A stretch of 64,000 nucleotides of DNA from Gemmatimonadota bacterium (lineage in GTDB: Bacteria > Gemmatimonadota > Gemmatimonadetes > Gemmatimonadales > GWC2-71-9). Each line of letters begins with the position of its first letter. Within the stretch, counting starts at the first letter, position 1. The position numbers and the translations under genes were made by a program. Of this stretch, positions 53,923-62,996 are shown piece after piece. The stretch spans positions 5,544 through 69,543 of the forward strand of contig JBGPLG010000001.1 of NCBI GenBank assembly GCA_041486305.1, read 5' to 3'. The notes under the pieces were generated by a model that was not told the DNA's origin, did not search any database, and saw only the letters and a program-made list of their open reading frames with translations.

Positions 53923-56900
53923 GTGCCAAACGCAACGAACCACCCCATTTCGGCATCGAATGGGGTATCCCCTGGCAAGGTCGTGGCAGTGACCGACACC
54001 GAGCTCTTCCAGACCCTGGTTCGGACGCTGGGCCAGCAATACCGGCTCGAGCGGGAAGTCGGGCGGGGAGGGATGGGCGTGGTGTTCCTAGCCACCGACC
54101 TGGCTCTTGACCGTCGGGTCGCGGTCAAAGTCATCCATCCTGACTTGGTCGTGAATCGGGCGCTGGCCGCCCGCTTCCTGGCCGAGGCCCGGCTGGTGGC
54201 GCGGATCCGCCATCCGAACATCGTCACGGTGCATGCGGCCGGCGACGCGGAAGGCCACCTCTTCTACGTCATGGATTTTCACGAAGGCGAGACGCTCCGC
54301 CAGCGGCTTCGCCGGGAGCGCCGCCTTCCTGAGGCAGTGGCCGTGTCCATCGCCGCAGACCTGGCGCTGGCGCTGGACGCCGCGGCCGCGACGGGGGTCG
54401 TTCATCGCGACCTCAAGCCGGAGAACATTCTGCTCGAGGGCCCGCCAGAGACCCCGACGGCCCTTCTGGCCGACTTTGGCATCGCCCGCCTGGTGGATGG
54501 TGTGGAGGGACCCACGGGTCCAACGGCCGTCATGGGCACGCCAGCGTATATGAGCCCGGAGCAGGCCGCCGGCGAGGAGATCGACTCCCGCAGCGACCTG
54601 TATTCGCTGGGCGTCGTGGCCTACGAGATGCTCGCTGGCGAGGCGCCGTTTACCGGCCCGGCCCGTATCGTGGTCTCTCGGCAGATCATCGATCCACCGC
54701 CGCCACTCGCCATCGTCCGCCAGGGACTTTCGGCGCCGGTGACCGACGCGGTCATGCGGGCGCTCGAGAAGATCCCGGAAAGCCGCTGGCAAAGCGGCGC
54801 CGCTTTCCGGCGTGCGTTGCTGGGAGAGCCGACACCGCCCGCGCCGGTGCCGCCGGGGAAACGGCGGCGGCGGCGGCGGCTCGGGGTCACGGTGGCGCTG
54901 ATGATCCTGCTCGCGGCCGCGCTCGGGGTTCTGGTGAAGGGCAGGGCAGGGGCACTCCGCGGTGCCAATCCCCGGCTCTCGCTGCTGGTGCTCCCGTTCG
55001 ACAACCTGCGGGACGATCCGGCACTCGCGTGGCTGCACGATGGCAGCGTCAACATGCTGGCTATGGCGCTTTCGCAGTGGCGCGATCTCGGCGTCGTGGA
55101 TCAGGACCGGGTCCACGACCTCTTGAGCCAGGCCAGGGTTCCCGATGACCAGCCGATCGGACTGGCCGAGGCGCGCCGGCTGGCTCGGCAGGCGGGCGCC
55201 GGCACCGTGGTGCTGGGAGACTACGCCCGCGCGGGTGATTCGCTCCGCCTCACTGCGCGCACCTATGACGTGGCCACCGGGGCGCGGGTCGATGTGGTAG
55301 AGTCCGCGGGCCGGGCCACCGACGACGTGCGGCCGTTGTTCGACGAACTGGCGGGCCGCCTGCTCGACCTCTCGGGCGCCCCCTCGGGCCGGCAGAGCCC
55401 CCTCGCCACAGTCACGACGGGATCGCTGGAGGCCTATCGAGCGTACCTGCAGGGCGTCGAGCACCTCAATCACTGGGAGCTGTTGCCCGCCGAGATCTCG
55501 TTCCGGCGCGCGGTGGCGCTCGACAGCACGTTCAGTCTCGCCTATTTCAAGCTCGGGCTCACCAGAGGGTGGGTGCTGGGCGCGGGCGACAGCGCTGGCC
55601 GGAACGCGGTCCTCCAGGCCTCACGATTCGCCGACCGGCTCCCGGAGCGTCAGCGCGGAATGATCGGCGCCTACCGCGCCATGCTCGATGGTGAGTACGA
55701 GCGGTCCCAGCAGCTGTACCGGAACATCCTGGCGCGCGATTCGGCGGACGCCGACGCCTGGTACGGATTGGGGGACGCGTTCTTCCACGACTCGGTCGCG
55801 GGGCTGACGCCGGGAGGCATGACGCGCTCGCTTCAGGCGTTCGGGAAGGCGCTGTCCCTCGATCCTCAGTACGCACTGGCATACGAGCACGTCACCTACC
55901 TGCTGACCGGCGCCGCCGGCCGGACCGCAAGCTATGCGCTGGTGGCTCCCGATTCGTTCGCGGCCACGATGGTGGCGGGAAAGCCTGCGCTCGACAGCAC
56001 TACCCGAGCAGCCGCACTCCGGCGCGCCGGTGCGGCTGCGGTGCGCGCCGCGCGGAACTGGGTCGCCTCTCAGCCGGCTACGGCGCGTGCGCACCATGCG
56101 CTCTTCGAGGCCTATTTTGCGAGCGAGGACTGGAACCAGGCTTCGCTCGAGGTCGCCGAGCTGGGGCGTTTGCTGCCGCCGGCGGGTCGCGGCCTTGCGG
56201 CCTTTCTCGAGGCCCGGGTGCGCTTCGCCAGGGGAGAGGCGCGCTCGGCCGCGACCCTGGTGCGGAGCACCACCGCCTCGTTCGGCGGCCGTGCGCCGGC
56301 ACTGCCCGATTTCGGGAGGGAATTCGTCTCCGACGTGATGGCCGGAGCGAACACCCTGGCCTATCAAGGCGATCTCGATGGCGCGGCGGACGTCATTGCG
56401 CTGGGCGACGCGATCCGCCGGGCAACGCTGATTCCCGCGAGCTCACCGACGATCTGGGACCAGGACGATGTGTGGCAGTGGTCCCGGCTGGCCCAGTTGT
56501 ACAGCGCGGCGGGCGGGCCGGCTCGGGAGCTCCGACGGGTCTGGTCCGATGTGGTGGAGGCGGCCAGGCGGGCGCCTGCGGCGGATCGCGCCAGCGTGGC
56601 CGGGGCGGGGGCCGCCGCCGCGGTCGGGCTGCTCCTCGGCGCGGAACCGGACAGCCGCCCGCTGGCCGAGCTGGAGACGTTGACCGGCCGATCCGCCTCT
56701 CCCGAGGTGCGGGCCCTCGCGGCGCTGGCGCGGGGCGACAGCGCGGTGGCCCGACAGGCGCTGGCCGATTCCGGCAGGCGGCCGGATCAGCCGGTGACCA
56801 AGACCGACGCGATCTACCTGGGCGTCGCCTGGAACGATCCCCGGCCGCTCGAGGCGGAGGCACGGTACCAGCTGGGCGACTACCGGGGCGCGATCGACAT

Positions 56901-57195
56901 GCTCCAGTCGTTCACCGAGACCCAGTTGTTCCGACGCGGATTCGACTCGCGCTGGGGCATCCTGGGCCGGGTGCACCTGCTGCGGGGCCTGGCCTACGAA
57001 CGGCTGGGCGAACCGGATCGTGCCACCCGCGAGTTCAGGGAGGTGGTCGTCGCCTGGCAGGGCGCCGACGAGCCGCTGCTGACCTTCGTCCAGCAGGCGC
57101 AGGCGGGCCTGGCTCGCTTGCGGGGATCGGTCGAGACCAAGAGCGAGGCGGCGATCGAGCCGCCGGGTTGCTCGGGGTGCAGCGGTATCCGCTAG
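53923..57195 (+). CDS. membrane Ser/Thr protein kinase with a large extracytoplasmic TPR-rich region
   Basis: Kinase motifs (GRGGMGVV, HRDLKPENI, DFG), one TM helix after an RRRRRR stretch, then TPR-like repeats. The GTG start is uncertain. Confidence 0.85.
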   Translation: MPNATNHPISASNGVSPGKVVAVTDTELFQTLVRTLGQQYRLEREVGRGGMGVVFLATDLALDRRVAVKVIHPDLVVNRALAARFLAEARLVARIRHPNIVTVHAAGDAEGHLFYVMDFHEGETLRQRLRRERRLPEAVAVSIAADLALALDAAAATGVVHRDLKPENILLEGPPETPTALLADFGIARLVDGVEGPTGPTAVMGTPAYMSPEQAAGEEIDSRSDLYSLGVVAYEMLAGEAPFTGPARIVVSRQIIDPPPPLAIVRQGLSAPVTDAVMRALEKIPESRWQSGAAFRRALLGEPTPPAPVPPGKRRRRRRLGVTVALMILLAAALGVLVKGRAGALRGANPRLSLLVLPFDNLRDDPALAWLHDGSVNMLAMALSQWRDLGVVDQDRVHDLLSQARVPDDQPIGLAEARRLARQAGAGTVVLGDYARAGDSLRLTARTYDVATGARVDVVESAGRATDDVRPLFDELAGRLLDLSGAPSGRQSPLATVTTGSLEAYRAYLQGVEHLNHWELLPAEISFRRAVALDSTFSLAYFKLGLTRGWVLGAGDSAGRNAVLQASRFADRLPERQRGMIGAYRAMLDGEYERSQQLYRNILARDSADADAWYGLGDAFFHDSVAGLTPGGMTRSLQAFGKALSLDPQYALAYEHVTYLLTGAAGRTASYALVAPDSFAATMVAGKPALDSTTRAAALRRAGAAAVRAARNWVASQPATARAHHALFEAYFASEDWNQASLEVAELGRLLPPAGRGLAAFLEARVRFARGEARSAATLVRSTTASFGGRAPALPDFGREFVSDVMAGANTLAYQGDLDGAADVIALGDAIRRATLIPASSPTIWDQDDVWQWSRLAQLYSAAGGPARELRRVWSDVVEAARRAPAADRASVAGAGAAAAVGLLLGAEPDSRPLAELETLTGRSASPEVRALAALARGDSAVARQALADSGRRPDQPVTKTDAIYLGVAWNDPRPLEAEARYQLGDYRGAIDMLQSFTETQLFRRGFDSRWGILGRVHLLRGLAYERLGEPDRATREFREVVVAWQGADEPLLTFVQQAQAGLARLRGSVETKSEAAIEPPGCSGCSGIR

Positions 57196-57224
57196 CCAGG
57201 GCGGCGCTTCCACCGTATAGTTCT

Positions 57225-57610
57225 GGCACGGGTCGAACGCGATGGTCGCGGGGGAACGCGAGTTCCCCCGAGGAAAGTCCGAGCTCCAACGGGTAGACTG
57301 CCAGGTAACGCCTGGGCGCCGAGAGGCGACGGACAGGGCCACAGAAAACAGACCGCCTCACGCAAGTGAGGTAAGGGTGAAACGGTGGGGTAAGAGCCCA
57401 CCGCGCTCCTGGCAACAGCGAGCGGCACGGCAACCCCCAGTCGGAGCAAGGCCAAATAGGCGGCGAGGTGTGGCCCACACCGACAACACCGGCAACGGTG
57501 AGCCGCGGGTAGGCTGCTCGAGGTGGCCGGCGACGGCCATCCCAGACAGATGACCATCCTTCGCGCGGAAGCGCGGGGAACAGAACTCGGCTTACGGTTC
57601 GACCCGTGCC
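57225..57610 (+). ncRNA. rnpB: RNase P RNA, bacterial type A
   Basis: Universal elements are present: GAGGAAAGTCCGAGCTCC, ACAGAAAACAGACCGCC, GGTAAGGGTGAAA, GGTAAGAGCCCACC, CAGACAGATGA and ACAGAACTCGGCTTAC. The P1 helix pairs GGCACGGGTCGAAC with GTTCGACCCGTGCC. A TATAGT -10-like box lies at 57216-57221. Confidence 0.92.
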
Positions 57611-57646
57611 CCCGGCGTCCCCCAAGGACGCCGGGGGTTGAAGTTT
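57609..57646 (+). terminator. Rho-independent terminator after rnpB
   Basis: CCCCCGGCGTCC-CCCAA-GGACGCCGGGGG followed by TTGAAGTTT. Confidence 0.8.
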
Positions 57647-57705
57647 GGTAGCTTTCGACTTCCTGGCGGGAACCGGCCCGCCCACTCATCCAAGCGAGGT
57701 GTTCC

Positions 57706-58500
57706 ATGTCGGTCCGTTCCACGATGCTTGCGTCGCTGGCCCTGATGCCATTCGCCCTGCCAGCGACGCCCCCGGCGGCGAGCACCACGCGATACCGCTT
57801 CGACCTCAAGGTGGAGACGACGGTGGACCTGAGCGTGGTCGGCGCCCCGACCCAGGTCACCAATCTCGGCCTCAACGCCTGGGTCGTGATGACGCTCAGC
57901 GACAGCGCGGGCGGCAAGGTCGTCCACGTCATCGTCGACTCGCTCAAGGTGGATACGACGATTCCGCAGATCACCCCCGCGACCATCGACAGCGCGAAAG
58001 GGGGCATGGTCCATGGCTGGGTCGACCCTACCGGTCACATCAAGAACGTCACCGGTACGCCGAGCGGGAACCCGCTGCTCGCGTCGGTGCAGGGGGTCGT
58101 CAACGCGCTCTTCCCCCGGGTCAAGGCCGGCACCAAGGCGGGCGATCACTGGGTCGACACGACCGAGGTGTCCAACTCCGGAGAAGGAAACAACACCAAG
58201 GTCAAGCTCGTTCTGAACTACGCCGCGGAGGGCAACGAGACCGTGGCCGGGCTGCCGGCCACCAAGGTGACGGCGAGCAGTACTTCCACCGTGTCGGGCA
58301 CCATGGAGAACGCGATGGCCGGCACCATGGAGGTCGAGGGGAACGGCACCGGGACCGGAACATTCTCCATTGGAACCGACGGCCGATTCCTGGGCGGCAC
58401 CTTGGCGTCCACGATTGACCAGCGACTGAAGGTCGCGATGGCACCGGCGCCGATCCCGGTCAAGACGATCCAGTCGCTCACCGTCACCCTGCTCAAGTGA
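57706..58500 (+). CDS. secreted hypothetical protein, paralog 1 of a tandem pair
   Basis: Signal peptide (LASLALMPFALPA) and a beta-rich, Thr/Gly/Val-rich body. I recognise no family. Confidence 0.6.
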   Translation: MSVRSTMLASLALMPFALPATPPAASTTRYRFDLKVETTVDLSVVGAPTQVTNLGLNAWVVMTLSDSAGGKVVHVIVDSLKVDTTIPQITPATIDSAKGGMVHGWVDPTGHIKNVTGTPSGNPLLASVQGVVNALFPRVKAGTKAGDHWVDTTEVSNSGEGNNTKVKLVLNYAAEGNETVAGLPATKVTASSTSTVSGTMENAMAGTMEVEGNGTGTGTFSIGTDGRFLGGTLASTIDQRLKVAMAPAPIPVKTIQSLTVTLLK

Positions 58501-59360
58501 GACCAGGCTTTCTGGGTGCCTGCGCGGCGGCCCTGGTGGGCGCGTGCGCAGGTACCAAGGGCTCGGCGCCGCCGGAGCCGGTCAGCGGAGCCCAGCCCAT
58601 AGCGGTACCGGCGGCGCCGAGCCCCCCGATCCACTACCGTCTGCGCACCCCCTTGGTGTATGAAGTGGAGCGATATGACAGCCTGTTCTACGCCAGCATG
58701 CCGGGCGCACCCCAGGCAACCGCCAAACGTGCCGTTCTGACTGCCCTGCCGCTCACCAGCCGGGGCAGTGACGTTGAAGTCCGGCTCGATTCCCTGTTGG
58801 CGCTTGAGGACACCCGGCTGACCTCGACTAGCGTCGACAGCAGCGTCGGGCGCCGCTGGCAATTCACGCTCGGCCCGACCGGCCCCAAAGGGGTGATGCT
58901 GGGGGGTCATCCGACGATTCTCTCGGGCCAAATCGAGGCGATCGTCAGGTTGTTGTTTCCGCAACTACCGTCGGAAGGCCTCCGGAGTCTGGATACCTGG
59001 AGCGATTCGACCTCGTACCGAGTGCAGCTTGATGCCTTCGATGCGTTCGAGACGGCGGTCCGGACCAGTCAGTCGGTGCCAGGCGTCGCGCAGACCGGCC
59101 AAGGCTCCGGGGTGTCGGTGGAGGCAAACGAGCGGCTCACCCGCACCGGCACGGCGATGCAGGCCGGCCAGGTCATGACCCTTAGAGGCGCTGGACTGCG
59201 CCGGTTGCGCTACGAGTTTGGTTCGGATGGCTGGGTCAGCGCCCTGACCGCACGAGACTCGCTCGACCTGGTCGTGACGGTCGGACCGGCGGGCGAAACG
59301 GTTCCCGTCCGCTGGCGCTCGACTCTGATCGGTCGACTGCGTGACCTACCCGTTCGCTGA
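58497..59360 (+). CDS. hypothetical lipoprotein, paralog 2 of a tandem pair
   Basis: The GTG start overlaps the previous stop (GTGA). Lipobox LVGACAG. Several blocks align by eye with paralog 1 (YR.., VDSL/LDSL, LFP, ..SDG../..TDG..). Confidence 0.6.
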   Translation: MRPGFLGACAAALVGACAGTKGSAPPEPVSGAQPIAVPAAPSPPIHYRLRTPLVYEVERYDSLFYASMPGAPQATAKRAVLTALPLTSRGSDVEVRLDSLLALEDTRLTSTSVDSSVGRRWQFTLGPTGPKGVMLGGHPTILSGQIEAIVRLLFPQLPSEGLRSLDTWSDSTSYRVQLDAFDAFETAVRTSQSVPGVAQTGQGSGVSVEANERLTRTGTAMQAGQVMTLRGAGLRRLRYEFGSDGWVSALTARDSLDLVVTVGPAGETVPVRWRSTLIGRLRDLPVR

Positions 59361-60225
59361 ACCGGAGGTACCCGCGGAGAGGCGCCGCGGTGGCTTTCGG
59401 GCGCTCAAGCGGATTGCTCGGTACGCCTGCCTCCTGTTCTTCGCCTGGCTCTGGTTCCTGTGGCCGCCGCCAGTCTGGTACCGGTGGGCCTGGCCCAGAC
59501 AAACGGCGTTCATGGCCATGCGCCGCGGTGAGGAGCGCCAGGTGCTCACGAGGGGCCTTGCCAAGGGCGAGCTGCCCAGGCGGCTGTACCAGCCGGTGGC
59601 GATCGAGCTGATCGCGCCGGTGGCGAAGACCGCAGCGCTGGTGGCGGAGGATCACCGCTTCTACGAGCACGCCGGTATCGACTACGTGGAGTTCCGCCAC
59701 GCCCTGGGCTATCGACCGGACGATTTTTCGGTGGGAAGCGCGCGCGATCGAGCCGAGCTGTGGCGGGCCCTGGAGCGGAGCCTGGCGGGGAAGGGACGGA
59801 TGCGGGGCGCCAGCACGATCACCCAGCAACTGGCCAAGAATCTCTACCTGTCCCCTTCACGCAACCCGCTCCGGAAGGTGAAGGAGGCGGTGACCGCCTG
59901 GCGGCTGGAGTACTGGCTGGGGAAAGAGCGGATCCTCGAACTGTACCTCAACGTCGTGGAGCTCGGGCCCGAGGTGTGGGGAGTCGAGGCGGCGAGCCGG
60001 AAGTATTTCGGCCACCCGGCACGCCAGCTGACGCTGGACGAGGCGGCCGCGCTCGCCGGCTCGCTGCCGTTCCCACTCAAGTCGAATCCGGGGTACCGTC
60101 CGGGCCGGATGCGCTGGCGTCAGGCGATGATCCTTCGCCGGGTGCGGGGAGAGAAGGTCGAGATTCCGAGGACGGCGGAGGAAGTCGATTCGGTAAGGCC
60201 GGATACCACCGGAATCCAGTACTGA
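59341..60225 (+). CDS. mtgA: monofunctional biosynthetic peptidoglycan transglycosylase (GT51)
   Basis: N-terminal TM helix. EDHRFYEHAGID, GASTITQQLAKN and RKVKEA motifs. Overlaps the preceding gene by 20 nt. Confidence 0.87.
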   Translation: MTYPFAEPEVPAERRRGGFRALKRIARYACLLFFAWLWFLWPPPVWYRWAWPRQTAFMAMRRGEERQVLTRGLAKGELPRRLYQPVAIELIAPVAKTAALVAEDHRFYEHAGIDYVEFRHALGYRPDDFSVGSARDRAELWRALERSLAGKGRMRGASTITQQLAKNLYLSPSRNPLRKVKEAVTAWRLEYWLGKERILELYLNVVELGPEVWGVEAASRKYFGHPARQLTLDEAAALAGSLPFPLKSNPGYRPGRMRWRQAMILRRVRGEKVEIPRTAEEVDSVRPDTTGIQY

Positions 60226-60243: not shown

Positions 60244-60267
60244 CGGGAGACGCATCGTTGTCTCCCG
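60244..60267. terminator. hairpin between convergent mtgA and dnaN
   Basis: CGGGAGAC-N8-GTCTCCCG, with additional flanking complementarity. Confidence 0.6.
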
Positions 60268-60274
60268 CGGGGCG

Positions 60275-61387
60275 TCAATCCACCAGCCGAAGCGGCATCA
60301 CCAGCGTCATGAAGCTCGCCGGATCATCCCAGCCCACCGGCTCGCAGGTCGCGGCGCGCTCGGGGGCTTTGAAGGTCATGCGTACCTCGTCGGTGGGCAT
60401 GTACTTCAGGATCTCGAGCATGTAGGCCGCGTTGAAGCCGATTTCCAGGGAGTCGCCCTCGTAGGCTACCGCCAGTTCCTCCTGGGCCTCGCCCAGGTCC
60501 GGGGTCTGGACCGACATCTTGCAGGCGCCGTTGGTGAACGCCATCCGGATCCGGTGGGTCTGGTCACTCGCCACGATGCTCATACGGCGGAGGGCCGCGG
60601 CCAGCGCGGCTTTATCGGCAGTGAGGCTCTTGTCGTTCTCCCGCGGGATTACCTGTTCGTAGTTTGGGTAGGGGCCCTCGATCAGACGGGTGTAGATCTG
60701 CGTGGTGGTCGATCGGAACCCGAGGTGGTTGTCGCTCTTCCCGATTTCGATCTCCTCGTCGCCCCCGAAGAGCCGGCGAATCTGATCCAGCGCCTTGGGC
60801 GGGATGATCAGATCCGCCTGTCCGCCGCCCTGGCCGCTGGTCGGTACATCCATGCGCGCCAGTCGGTGCCCGTTGGTGGCGACCATCCGCATCCGGTCGG
60901 CGCGGAGCTCCCAGAGCACCCCGTTCAGAATCGGGCGGCTCTCCTCGGTGCTGGCGGCAAAGGCGACGTGGCTGATCAGCTTCTGCAGATCCTTGGCCGC
61001 CACCTTCCAGCCCCCCTCGAACTTGACGGTGGGGAAGGCGGGGAACTCGTCCCGGGACAGGCCCAGGAGCTTGAACTTGGACTTGCCGCACTCGATGCTG
61101 GCGCGCTGCTCGCCGGAGCTGGTCATCCGGATAGCGGCGTTGGGGAGCTCCTTCACGATCTCGACCAGTTTGCGGGCCGGGAGCGTCGTGGCGCCCTCCT
61201 GGTCAACCGAGGCCGGTATGGTGGTGCTCACCGAGATGTCGAGATCCGTGCCGGAGAGCTTGAGCCCGTCCTTGGATGCCTCGACCAGAATGTTGGCCAG
61301 CACGGGAAGCGTAGTCTTCGAAGGCACGCTTGCCGCGACCGCCCCGAGACCTTCATGGAGTTTTTCCCGCGTGATCGTGAACTTCAT
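60275..61387 (-). CDS. dnaN: DNA polymerase III beta sliding clamp
   Basis: Starts at MKFTITREKL (61387). Full-length three-domain DnaN similarity. Confidence 0.96.
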   Translation of the reverse strand: MKFTITREKLHEGLGAVAASVPSKTTLPVLANILVEASKDGLKLSGTDLDISVSTTIPASVDQEGATTLPARKLVEIVKELPNAAIRMTSSGEQRASIECGKSKFKLLGLSRDEFPAFPTVKFEGGWKVAAKDLQKLISHVAFAASTEESRPILNGVLWELRADRMRMVATNGHRLARMDVPTSGQGGGQADLIIPPKALDQIRRLFGGDEEIEIGKSDNHLGFRSTTTQIYTRLIEGPYPNYEQVIPRENDKSLTADKAALAAALRRMSIVASDQTHRIRMAFTNGACKMSVQTPDLGEAQEELAVAYEGDSLEIGFNAAYMLEILKYMPTDEVRMTFKAPERAATCEPVGWDDPASFMTLVMPLRLVD

Positions 61388-61610
61388 CCGAAAGCTCCCC
61401 GCAAAGCCCAATAAGAAGAGACTACTTACAGATAGTTATACCTAGCAGCAGTAGTAGAGGAGCTGAAGATGTGGACATGGTCCGCAAGTGACGTGTCCAC
61501 CGGCTCATCCCTTGTTTGGTCGCGTGGGGATCGTGTTGGCATTGGGGATAGATGCGCCCCCGCTGTGCCCTTATCCCCGATCGTCCACAGGACCACATAC
61601 GCCGAAGCGA
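61388..61610. other. candidate oriC module (dnaA-dnaN spacer): AT-rich patch plus a cluster of degenerate DnaA boxes
   Basis: AT-rich stretch at about 61410-61460. 9-mers matching TTATCCACA/TGTGGATAA at 7/9: 61470-78 TGTGGACAT, 61543-51 TGGGGATAG, 61571-79 TTATCCCCG, 61581-89 TCGTCCACA. Weaker 6/9 matches at 61493-501 and 61525-33. Confidence 0.5.
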
Positions 61611-62996
61611 TTACGGTGCGTACAACTCCTGCCGAGCGGACTCAACGCGTTCGCGGAACTGACGATCGCGCTGCAACTGTCGCTGCACCTTGTCCACACT
61701 GTGAATCACGGTTGAGTGGTCCCGTCCTCCGAAAGCCTGCCCGATTTCCACGAGCTGCATCTGCAGCACTTCGCGCGCGAGGTACATTGCAATCTGACGC
61801 GGCACGGTGAGCGTCTTGATGCGCGCCTTGGAGCGGAGCCCTTCCGGTGTCACCCCCCAGCGCCGGGCCACGACGTCCTGCACCTTGTCGATGGTCGGAC
61901 TCTGTTTGGGCAACGCACCGGACTGCTCCTGCCCAGGCCGGATCTTGTCGGCCAGGGCCTCGCGGGCCAGGTCGATAGTGATCTCGCGATGCCGGAGCGA
62001 CGCGTAGAGAAGGAGCTTGATGATGCAGCCCTCGAGCTCCCGCACATTCGAGTGCACGTATTCCGCGATGAAGCTCAGGACTTCATCAGGAATCGTCGTT
62101 TCGAGGTGATCCTGCTCCTGTTTCTTGCGCAGGATGGCGATCCGGTGCTCGAGGTCCGGCTGGCCCACATCGGCCACCATGCCCCATTCGAACCGACTGA
62201 CCAGCCGCGCCTCGAGACCCGGCATTTCCTTGGGGGGCCGGTCCGAGGTCAGGACGATCTGTCTCTTGGCCTCGTAGAGGGTGTTGAACGTGTGAAAGAA
62301 CTCTTCCTGAGTGGCTTCCTTGCCCTCGAGGAAGTGCACGTCGTCCACCAGGAACAGGTCCACGTCGTTGCGATAGCGGCGCCGGAGCTCCGGCATGGTG
62401 CGAGAGTGGATGCTCTCGATCACTTCGTTGATGAACTGCTCGGCCCCGACGTAGAGCACCCGCACGGAGGGGCTTCTGCGGGTGACGATATGGCCGATGG
62501 CCTGCATGAGATGGGTCTTGCCGAGCCCGGTGGCCCCGTAGATGAACAGGGGGTTGTAGAGCTTTCCGGGGGCCTCCGCGACGGCGTGCGCGGCTGCGGC
62601 GGCCAGCTCGTTGGACTTGCCGATGACGAAATTCTCGAAGGTATAGCGCTCGTTGAGCGGTTGCGCGGGCGCATTGGCCGCCGCCGCCGAGCTCACGGCA
62701 GGGATCGGCGCGACGAAGAAGTCCATCTGGGGGCGCTGCAGCCGATCTTCGTCCACTCGGAAGATGACCGAGACGGGGCGCCCCAGCGCGCGCTCGGCAA
62801 GCCGCGCAAACAGCCCGGAGTTCTTGGCCTCGTTCCATTGCACGGCAAACTCGTCGGGGACGCCCAGGATCAACCGATCGCTCTCCAGCGCGACAGGTTT
62901 GGCGGGCTCAACCCAGGCCTTGAAATCCTTTTCGGGGATTTCGCGGCGAGCGTCGTCCAGGATGCGCGTCCAGGCCTCTTTTAGCGACAGCTGCAT
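61611..62996 (-). CDS. dnaA: chromosomal replication initiator protein DnaA
   Basis: AAA+ motifs (GATGLGKTHL, LVDDVHF) and the domain IV DNA-binding signature (DHSTVIH). Confidence 0.97.
   Translation of the reverse strand: MQLSLKEAWTRILDDARREIPEKDFKAWVEPAKPVALESDRLILGVPDEFAVQWNEAKNSGLFARLAERALGRPVSVIFRVDEDRLQRPQMDFFVAPIPAVSSAAAANAPAQPLNERYTFENFVIGKSNELAAAAAHAVAEAPGKLYNPLFIYGATGLGKTHLMQAIGHIVTRRSPSVRVLYVGAEQFINEVIESIHSRTMPELRRRYRNDVDLFLVDDVHFLEGKEATQEEFFHTFNTLYEAKRQIVLTSDRPPKEMPGLEARLVSRFEWGMVADVGQPDLEHRIAILRKKQEQDHLETTIPDEVLSFIAEYVHSNVRELEGCIIKLLLYASLRHREITIDLAREALADKIRPGQEQSGALPKQSPTIDKVQDVVARRWGVTPEGLRSKARIKTLTVPRQIAMYLAREVLQMQLVEIGQAFGGRDHSTVIHSVDKVQRQLQRDRQFRERVESARQELYAP

Follow-up and report, generated by a model that had tools for sequence, protein, structure and literature searches.

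Do two exported proteins whose genes overlap that of a peptidoglycan glycosyltransferase work together with the enzyme, or do they stand beside it by descent? The question is posed by a 64,000-nucleotide stretch of DNA, here called the window, from a Gemmatimonadota bacterium of the order Gemmatimonadales (contig JBGPLG010000001.1 of assembly GCA_041486305.1, positions 5,544 to 69,543 of the forward strand), in which two genes, P1 and P2, lead into an mtgA-like gene for a glycosyltransferase of family GT51. An original prediction, made from the sequence alone, described P1 and P2 as distant paralogues and suggested that they are accessory or regulatory lipoproteins of the enzyme, by analogy with the Lpo-type activators of class A penicillin-binding proteins (PBPs). 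The analysis presented here shows that P1 and P2 are true paralogues, the products of an ancient tandem duplication within a family of exported proteins, and that P1, P2 and mtgA form a single overlapping, translationally coupled unit in this Gemmatimonadales genome. That the two proteins act in the cell envelope with MtgA, as its non-enzymatic binding partners, is a tentative reading, and it is weighed below against other explanations of the same locus.

Two exported paralogues coupled to an mtgA-like gene

P1 is an open reading frame (ORF) of 264 amino acids (aa) on the + strand (57706..58500), with a Shine-Dalgarno sequence, GAGG, positioned 8 nucleotides (nt) 5' of its ATG start. The tetranucleotide GTGA is common to the P1 stop and to the GTG start of P2, an ORF of 287 aa (58497..59360, +), and P2 in turn overlaps by 20 nt (59341-59360) the GT51 glycosyltransferase ORF of 294 aa (59341..60225, +), for which the GTG at 59341 is the sole start codon upstream of the membrane helix of the MtgA-like protein. 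Both overlaps, by which the original prediction had chained the three genes together, are found in the ORF coordinates. On the upstream side, the RNase P RNA gene rnpB (57229..57610, +; Rfam RF00010, 291.9 bits, E 4e-95) lies outside the operon, and the 13-bp GC-rich hairpin at its 3' side (57608..57638, +; -33.1 kcal/mol, z -3.5) is probably the rnpB 3' end or a terminator that parts rnpB from P1. The stem of this hairpin, CCCCCGGCG/CGCCGGGGG, is kept in nine relatives, with a variable loop. A scan for sigma-70 promoters placed its sole site upstream of rnpB and found none in the gap between rnpB and P1, the sequence of which is not conserved among relatives. On the downstream side, mtgA and dnaN converge across a gap of 49 nt that contains a second hairpin (60244..60266, assigned to neither strand), with a 9-bp GC stem, GGGAGACGC/GUCUCCC, inside a structure of -32 kcal/mol (z -2.4); this hairpin is a probable bidirectional terminator and would mark the end of the operon. 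Bounded in this manner by the rnpB hairpin and the convergent terminator hairpin, the overlapping genes have the appearance of an operon of three genes in the region of the replication origin.

P1 and P2 are exported by different means. The hydrophobic N-terminus of P1 (about aa 1-25, 57706-57780, +) has the character of an ordinary signal peptide, and a hydrophobic signal segment is present in all 43 sampled N-termini of the P1 family, with a conserved Cys in none of them. In P2, a lipobox, LVGAC, with its cysteine at position 17 (58533-58547, +), is followed by a Pro/Ala-rich linker of approximately 27 residues (aa 18-44, 58548-58628, +), and in an alignment of 28 homologues the lipobox recurs in 26 N-termini, again with a Pro/Ala-rich linker behind it. 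From these features P1 is predicted to be a soluble periplasmic protein without a lipid anchor, and P2 to be a lipoprotein anchored at Cys17 on a flexible Pro/Ala-rich tether. The signal peptide and the lipobox had both been seen in the original prediction and hold up, but its description of the proteins as lipoproteins applies to P2 only, as no conserved Cys exists among the 43 relatives of P1. The mature proteins also differ in charge, P1 being near neutral (pI 6.4) and P2 Arg-rich (pI 9.4).

The common ancestry of the two proteins is evident both from the pair itself and from family profiles. BLASTP aligns P1 with P2 over 260 residues at 25% identity (E 1e-8), and pairs the VDSL/LDSL, PTG, LFP and (S/T)DG blocks, the very blocks on which a resemblance had earlier been noted by eye. 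In P1 the conserved motifs are VDSL (57934-57945), LFPRVKAGTKAGDHWVDTT (58108-58164) and GTDGRFLGG (58372-58398), and in P2 they are LDSL (58785-58796), LFPQLPSEGLRSLDTWSDST (58953-59012) and GSDGWV (59220-59237), all on the + strand. Comparison by hhalign of a profile of 43 P1 relatives with one of 28 P2 relatives gives a probability of 98.2% and an E-value of 3.8e-14 over 212 columns.

The third protein is, judged by its sequence, a monofunctional, membrane-anchored GT51 enzyme with intact catalytic motifs, as the original prediction had called it. It matches Pfam PF00912 (Transgly) with an E-value of 2.7e-47, a Pfam scan finds no transpeptidase or other second domain, and alignment to the glycosyltransferase domain of Aquifex PBP1a (2oqo) shows both catalytic Glu motifs to be intact. 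The membrane anchor (aa 28-47, 59422-59481) is followed by the GT51 motifs EDHRFYEHAG (aa 103-112, 59647-59676), GASTITQQ (aa 156-163, 59806-59829) and RKVKE (aa 178-182, 59872-59886), all on the + strand. The protein thus resembles MtgA (TIGR02070) in its GT51 domain, its two catalytic Glu motifs, its N-terminal membrane anchor and its lack of a transpeptidase module, but differs in a lineage-specific insertion of approximately 22 residues and in a tail of about 20 at the C-terminus, and it is called MtgA-like because its score against TIGR02070 (158.7 bits) is under the equivalog cutoff of 182.65. The insertion is deduced from the spacer between motifs 1 and 2, which is 43 aa long (aa 113-155, 59677-59805, +) as compared to approximately 21 residues in canonical enzymes (from the Aquifex PBP1a alignment), and it falls roughly at aa 121-152, with the sequence GYRPDDFS....RDRAELWRAL in the window. 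In E. coli MtgA the spacer is likewise about 21 residues long.

Several further ORFs of 185-271 aa, in antisense frames (57192-58964, - strand) or other alternative frames, overlap P1, P2 and rnpB; frames poor in stops are usual in a genome of 66-70% GC, and these ORFs are not genes. Beyond the terminator hairpin lie dnaN (60275..61411, -), which is convergent with mtgA and carries Pfam DNA_pol3_beta domains 1-3, and dnaA (61611..62996, -; Pfam Bac_DnaA). The listed dnaN ORF begins at a TTG that adds eight residues (MGFAGSFR) before the conserved MKFTITRE, and translation probably begins at the ATG at 61387.

Linkage to mtgA in related loci

If P1 and P2 are partners of MtgA, the arrangement of their genes in other genomes is of immediate interest. 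The sample consisted of 80 species-representative genome loci, from a scan with 15 closer sequences, together with metagenome contigs, and the loci were annotated with family hidden Markov models plus the MtgA, DnaN and DnaA sequences of the window. Architecture is informative in 74 of the 80 species loci and undetermined in six. P1, P2 and mtgA are adjacent in 14 species loci, and in eight others P1 is adjacent to mtgA with P2 absent. A third arrangement (clade d, 26 loci) has a single lipoprotein homologue, an unrelated ORF of 283 aa and a Ser/Thr kinase gene on the opposite strand, with mtgA approximately 2 kb downstream. In a fourth (clade c, 22 loci) P1 and P2 are present but mtgA is missing ahead of dnaN, its place usually taken by a YtxH gene, and the last four loci have a single homologue and no mtgA. 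The linkage to mtgA, named in the original prediction as a point to be checked, therefore stands in part: mtgA lies directly 3' of the family gene or genes in 22 of the 74 informative loci, but it is displaced in 26 and absent from the locus in another 26, among them the complete chromosome CP070716.1.

Placed on a neighbor-joining tree of DnaN, the P1-P2-mtgA order occurs in three separate clades, including the divergent lineage of loci L085-87, and for this reason it looks ancestral. The same tree shows repeated losses of P2, and also that mtgA was more than once either lost or moved away. In the tree of the family itself, the single-copy lipoproteins group with P2, so that P1 occurs alone in eight species and a single P2-like lipoprotein alone in 30. 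The surroundings are more constant, with a family gene directly 3' of rnpB in all ten related loci tested, and dnaN-dnaA downstream of the family gene in every locus that reaches far enough.

Several of these observations count in favor of a partnership with MtgA. First, the three genes of the window overlap at their starts and stops; the 20-nt overlap between P2 and mtgA is shared by L005, L007 and L011, the nearest relatives, and a start that would give the 4-nt overlap of P1 and P2 (ATGA or GTGA) is available in 32 of the 43 loci with both genes. The occurrence of P1-P2-mtgA in three clades, and of P1-mtgA in the eight further species, is counted likewise, as is the placement of all three proteins outside the cytoplasm, inferred from a signal peptide, a lipobox and a membrane-anchored GT51 domain. 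A further point comes from the spacer of the MtgA-like enzyme, which tracks adjacency to P1. A spacer of 43 residues is found in every scorable MtgA encoded directly 3' of P1 or P1-P2 (29 loci and the window, with L085-87 included), and the spacer is 33 or 16 residues long in the clade that has no P1-type gene and a displaced mtgA, the 16-residue version being that of a subclade (L058, L075, L079, L081 and L084).

Other observations weigh against the partnership. Where mtgA lies approximately 2 kb away (26 loci), an unrelated ORF and a kinase gene on the opposite strand intervene, and where mtgA is missing from the stretch that leads to dnaN (another 26), P1 and P2 are still intact and conserved to a similar degree. 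The existence of lineages that keep only P1, or only a P2-like protein, implies that a complex of fixed stoichiometry is not needed. Across the genomes compared, identity to the DnaN of the window is 73-98%, and since these genomes are close relatives in which the non-operonic neighbors rnpB and dnaN are equally syntenic, the shared order is weak evidence of function and may reflect descent rather than selection. Furthermore, the correlation of spacer length with P1 falls on a single branch of the tree, and as such counts as about one event.

These same facts can be accommodated by an alternative in which P1 and P2 are fast-evolving envelope or surface proteins, the soluble and lipid-anchored forms of one binding module, and have no relation to MtgA. 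Adjacency to mtgA would then have been inherited with the rnpB-dnaN interval that has been shared since the common ancestor, and co-transcription would be incidental. In favor of this alternative, direct adjacency is missing in 52 of the 74 informative loci, so that the linkage has been broken repeatedly, P1 and P2 persist without a local mtgA, and the phylogenetic depth is shallow with the entire block syntenic. Yet tight overlaps with mtgA recur across several clades, the triad is kept in the divergent L085-87 lineage, and the insertion in MtgA covaries with the presence of P1, all of which counts against an unrelated pair; nor does the alternative supply a positive mechanism. It too is tentative, and the two readings are given equal weight.

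Some features of the related loci stand apart from this argument. In L001 (2020-2499, -), and in equivalent clade-c loci, an opposite-strand gene with a YtxH domain usually fills the slot between P2 and dnaN (the 22 mtgA-less species). The ORF of approximately 283 aa that follows the single lipoprotein homologue in L054 (7759-8610), and its equivalent in about 26 clade-d loci, has a signal-like N-terminus and a beta-rich sequence rich in Gly, Ala and Leu, with no match in Pfam; a cryptic P2 is ruled out by an hhalign probability of 0.1%, and the product may be an outer-membrane protein. Genes for Ser/Thr kinases recur in the vicinity of the family gene, one of them in L085 (4126-5016) and another in L054 (8607-9947, -), where it lies on the way from the lipoprotein gene to mtgA. 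The window also has such a gene just 5' of rnpB (53923-57195, +), encoding a protein kinase of 1090 aa with a long, TPR-containing C-terminal region.

Evolutionary rate, family placement and predicted fold

For genes in so conserved a locus, P1 and P2 evolve unusually fast. Between the window and L005 or L011 the two proteins are only 50-60% identical, compared to 97-98% for DnaN. Estimated by the Nei-Gojobori method, and with dS close to saturation, the ratio of nonsynonymous to synonymous substitutions (dN/dS) lies at 0.27-0.50 in P1 and P2, at 0.16-0.21 in MtgA, and at 0.02-0.05 in DnaN and DnaA. P1 and P2 are thus real genes under weak purifying selection, a regime common for exposed envelope proteins. 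The rates can be read in two ways. That all three genes of the operon evolve faster than their housekeeping neighbors is counted in favor of a partnership with MtgA, and identity of 60% in P1 and P2 at 98% in DnaN, with dN/dS of 0.3-0.5, is typical of exposed envelope proteins and would suit a pair with no connection to the enzyme.

No family in Pfam or NCBIfam passes threshold for P1 or P2. The nearest is DUF6263 (PF19777), to which P1 scores 13.0 bits (E 0.079), below the gathering cutoff of 26.7 bits, and to which P2 has no match in the Pfam scan. Sub-threshold matches to DUF6263 (E <0.1) are found in 11 of the 43 P1 relatives, with a best E-value of 7.9e-6 and a highest score in the P1 family of 26.1 bits, still short of 26.7; the P2 family has a match in one of its 28 members (E 0.039). 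Isolated matches of family members to PPC, CARDB, Big_7, TIG and DEC-1_N were dismissed as noise. At the level of profiles, A4, a diverse profile of the family, aligns by hhalign with P0343 at a probability of 96.3% (E 1.7e-9, 182 columns), the match being centred on FPxLPxxxxxxGDxW and the strands that follow. P0343 is a low-GC lipoprotein that scores 28.2 bits against PF19777, just over the DUF6263 cutoff, and by this match the P1/P2 pair is a divergent branch of the uncharacterised DUF6263 superfamily.

The distribution of the family is narrow. Homologues of P1 in the protein database number 136, all of them unnamed or from Gemmatimonadales, and a set of 1.8 billion representative proteins, its entries without names or context, yields 1006 clusters. 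All named relatives belong to Gemmatimonadota, and a search of the protein database with a diverse profile of 18 sequences found nothing outside this phylum except two DUF6263-like proteins. By its named members, the P1/P2 family is confined to Gemmatimonadota, with DUF6263 as remote kin. The original prediction had recognised no domain in either protein, and this remains the case for characterised families, as the only remote kin is itself uncharacterised. A literature search on DUF6263 found no paper, and because DUF6263 has neither a function nor a literature, the link adds no functional information.

The comparison with DUF6263 does bear on gene context. Both groups consist of exported proteins, usually with a lipobox, and share remote homology that includes the FPxLPxxxxxxGDxW motif. 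The Gemmatimonadota branch differs in being duplicated, with a non-lipidated and a lipidated member beside mtgA, and the pair is in this sense a duplicated, mtgA-linked branch of an uncharacterised superfamily; elsewhere the genes are single and have no GT51 neighbor. On sediment metagenome contigs (L088-L098, GC 0.43-0.51), relatives of P0343 are single genes, next to ORFs that resemble hydantoinase/oxoprolinase and M28 peptidases, judged from N-terminal sequences only, and these neighbors give no clue to function. That no GT51 or other cell-wall synthesis gene neighbors the P0343-like genes on metagenome contigs speaks against a role with MtgA, and that DUF6263-like lipoproteins elsewhere stand alone favors envelope proteins without a tie to the enzyme.

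AlphaFold2 models of P1 and P2 (pLDDT 81.6 and 83.9, respectively) are confident and share one succession of elements, in which three long strands lead to a helix, a pair of short strands, a second helix and, at the end, six long strands. In each mature domain, of approximately 240 residues, the two helices are short, and the 11 long antiparallel strands are predicted to surround them as a barrel or curved sheet. Foldseek searches of the PDB with both models, a check put forward in the original prediction, brought no convincing solved structure, with no match at a TM-score of 0.5 and a best of 0.40-0.43. The P2 model had no match at TM 0.5 in BFVD, and a sequence search of the PDB with the family profile found nothing. 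The best PDB analogues of both paralogues are the N-terminal beta-barrels of ApoB100 (9bd8_A) and MTP (6i7s_G), at a Foldseek probability of 1.00, TM 0.40-0.43, rmsd 8-15 A and 7-12% sequence identity. These vitellogenin-N type domains are similar in size and have a barrel-like sheet of approximately 11 long strands around helices, but they are eukaryotic, come from another context and score below TM 0.5, and a Pfam scan of P1 and P2 finds no PF01347 (vitellogenin-N) match. The resemblance is an analogy at best, not membership.

The predicted architecture raises the possibility that P1 and P2 are a carrier and acceptor in the manner of LolA and LolB, with soluble P1 passing a hydrophobic cargo, lipoproteins or lipids, to anchored P2, and with each domain forming a half-barrel of 11 antiparallel strands to which the helices serve as a lid. 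Both LolA and LolB combine helices with an antiparallel sheet of 11 strands. Like P1 and P2, they are distant paralogues, one soluble in the periplasm and the other lipid-anchored, and the predicted 11 strands plus helices of P1 and P2 extend the likeness, as does the fact that the closest PDB analogues by TM-score are the barrel-around-helix domains of lipid-transfer proteins, ApoB100 and MTP (TM 0.40-0.43). Against this, the domains of P1 and P2 are larger (approximately 240 versus 180 residues), LolA and LolB are absent among the best 50 Foldseek PDB matches listed for the two models, the sole LolA-like entry among the matches listed is a DUF1329 protein (4z48) at TM 0.21, and there is no Pfam match to LolA or LolB. 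The pair is also not universally retained, and clades with only P1 or only a P2-like protein are ill-suited to an obligate donor and acceptor, just as weak purifying selection is atypical of an essential trafficking system. A carrier-acceptor pair of this type is therefore improbable.

Integral outer-membrane beta-barrels, similar to porins, are the least probable identity for P1 and P2. Ranked by E-value, many of the Foldseek matches are porins, but at TM 0.18-0.30 and rmsd 16-24 A, and these, together with matches to maturation proteins, were rejected as artefacts of long hairpins. The models have an odd number of strands (11) and two predicted internal helices, the aromatic residues are few, and the C-terminal aromatic signature is missing, with P1 ending in TLLK and P2 in LPVR. 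P2 is, in addition, a lipoprotein with a flexible linker. Low TM-scores, odd strand number, non-aromatic C-termini and the P2 lipobox together effectively refute an outer-membrane barrel.

A possible partnership with a monofunctional glycosyltransferase

Monofunctional GT51 enzymes such as MtgA are widespread, but little is understood of what they do in the cell or of how they are regulated. We know of no protein activator or regulatory partner of a monofunctional GT51 enzyme. When the literature was searched for a lipoprotein that activates MtgA, all the papers found dealt with Lpo proteins and PBPs, and the sole modulator listed for S. aureus MtgA in a 2015 review of synthase regulation is lipid II (PMC4632607). 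Because the review lists only lipid II, a protein partner would be new.

How might P1 and P2 act with MtgA, if they do? The tether of P2 would allow it to reach MtgA, or its product, from a membrane, and P1 would serve as a soluble partner. Together they could position or modulate the enzyme, or handle nascent glycan strands, and a candidate docking site is the stretch of approximately 22 residues inserted after GT51 motif 1 and before motif 2. The effect could be one of activation, inhibition or scaffolding. A bolder version has P1 and P2 dock on the MtgA insertion and control the polymerisation of glycan strands, as the first proteins dedicated to partnering a monofunctional GT51 enzyme; it is unlikely, although it is worth stating for what it would imply.

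The comparison with Lpo proteins (LpoA, LpoB and LpoP) from which the original prediction set out is a conceptual one. P2 as a tethered lipoprotein could reach a membrane-anchored GT51 enzyme, and Lpo proteins, like P1 and P2, are lineage-restricted and fast-evolving. The differences are otherwise considerable: Lpo proteins have no similarity of sequence or fold to P1 and P2, P1 is not a lipoprotein, and the MtgA-like enzyme is a monofunctional GT51 protein without the UB2H or ODD docking domains, with only the insertion of approximately 22 aa in their stead. Lpo genes are, moreover, not normally in an operon with those of their PBPs. The analogy finds no backing in similarity, neither in Pfam and NCBIfam nor among the best 50 Foldseek PDB matches listed for either model, where Lpo structures are absent. 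The same negative extends to known synthase regulators in general, to which Pfam and NCBIfam, Foldseek against the PDB and the PDB sequence search reveal no similarity, and this counts against a partnership. The suggestion of an Lpo-like accessory role is based solely on the order of the genes, and is neither disproved nor established.

What the locus means for the biology of the Gemmatimonadota depends on which reading is correct. Should P1 and P2 not be partners of MtgA, they would be another rapidly evolving, phylum-restricted envelope family in a poorly studied phylum. Should they be its partners, the principle known from Lpo proteins, that lineage-specific envelope proteins govern GT51 enzymes, would extend to MtgA, and proteins of the DUF6263 type would acquire their first function.

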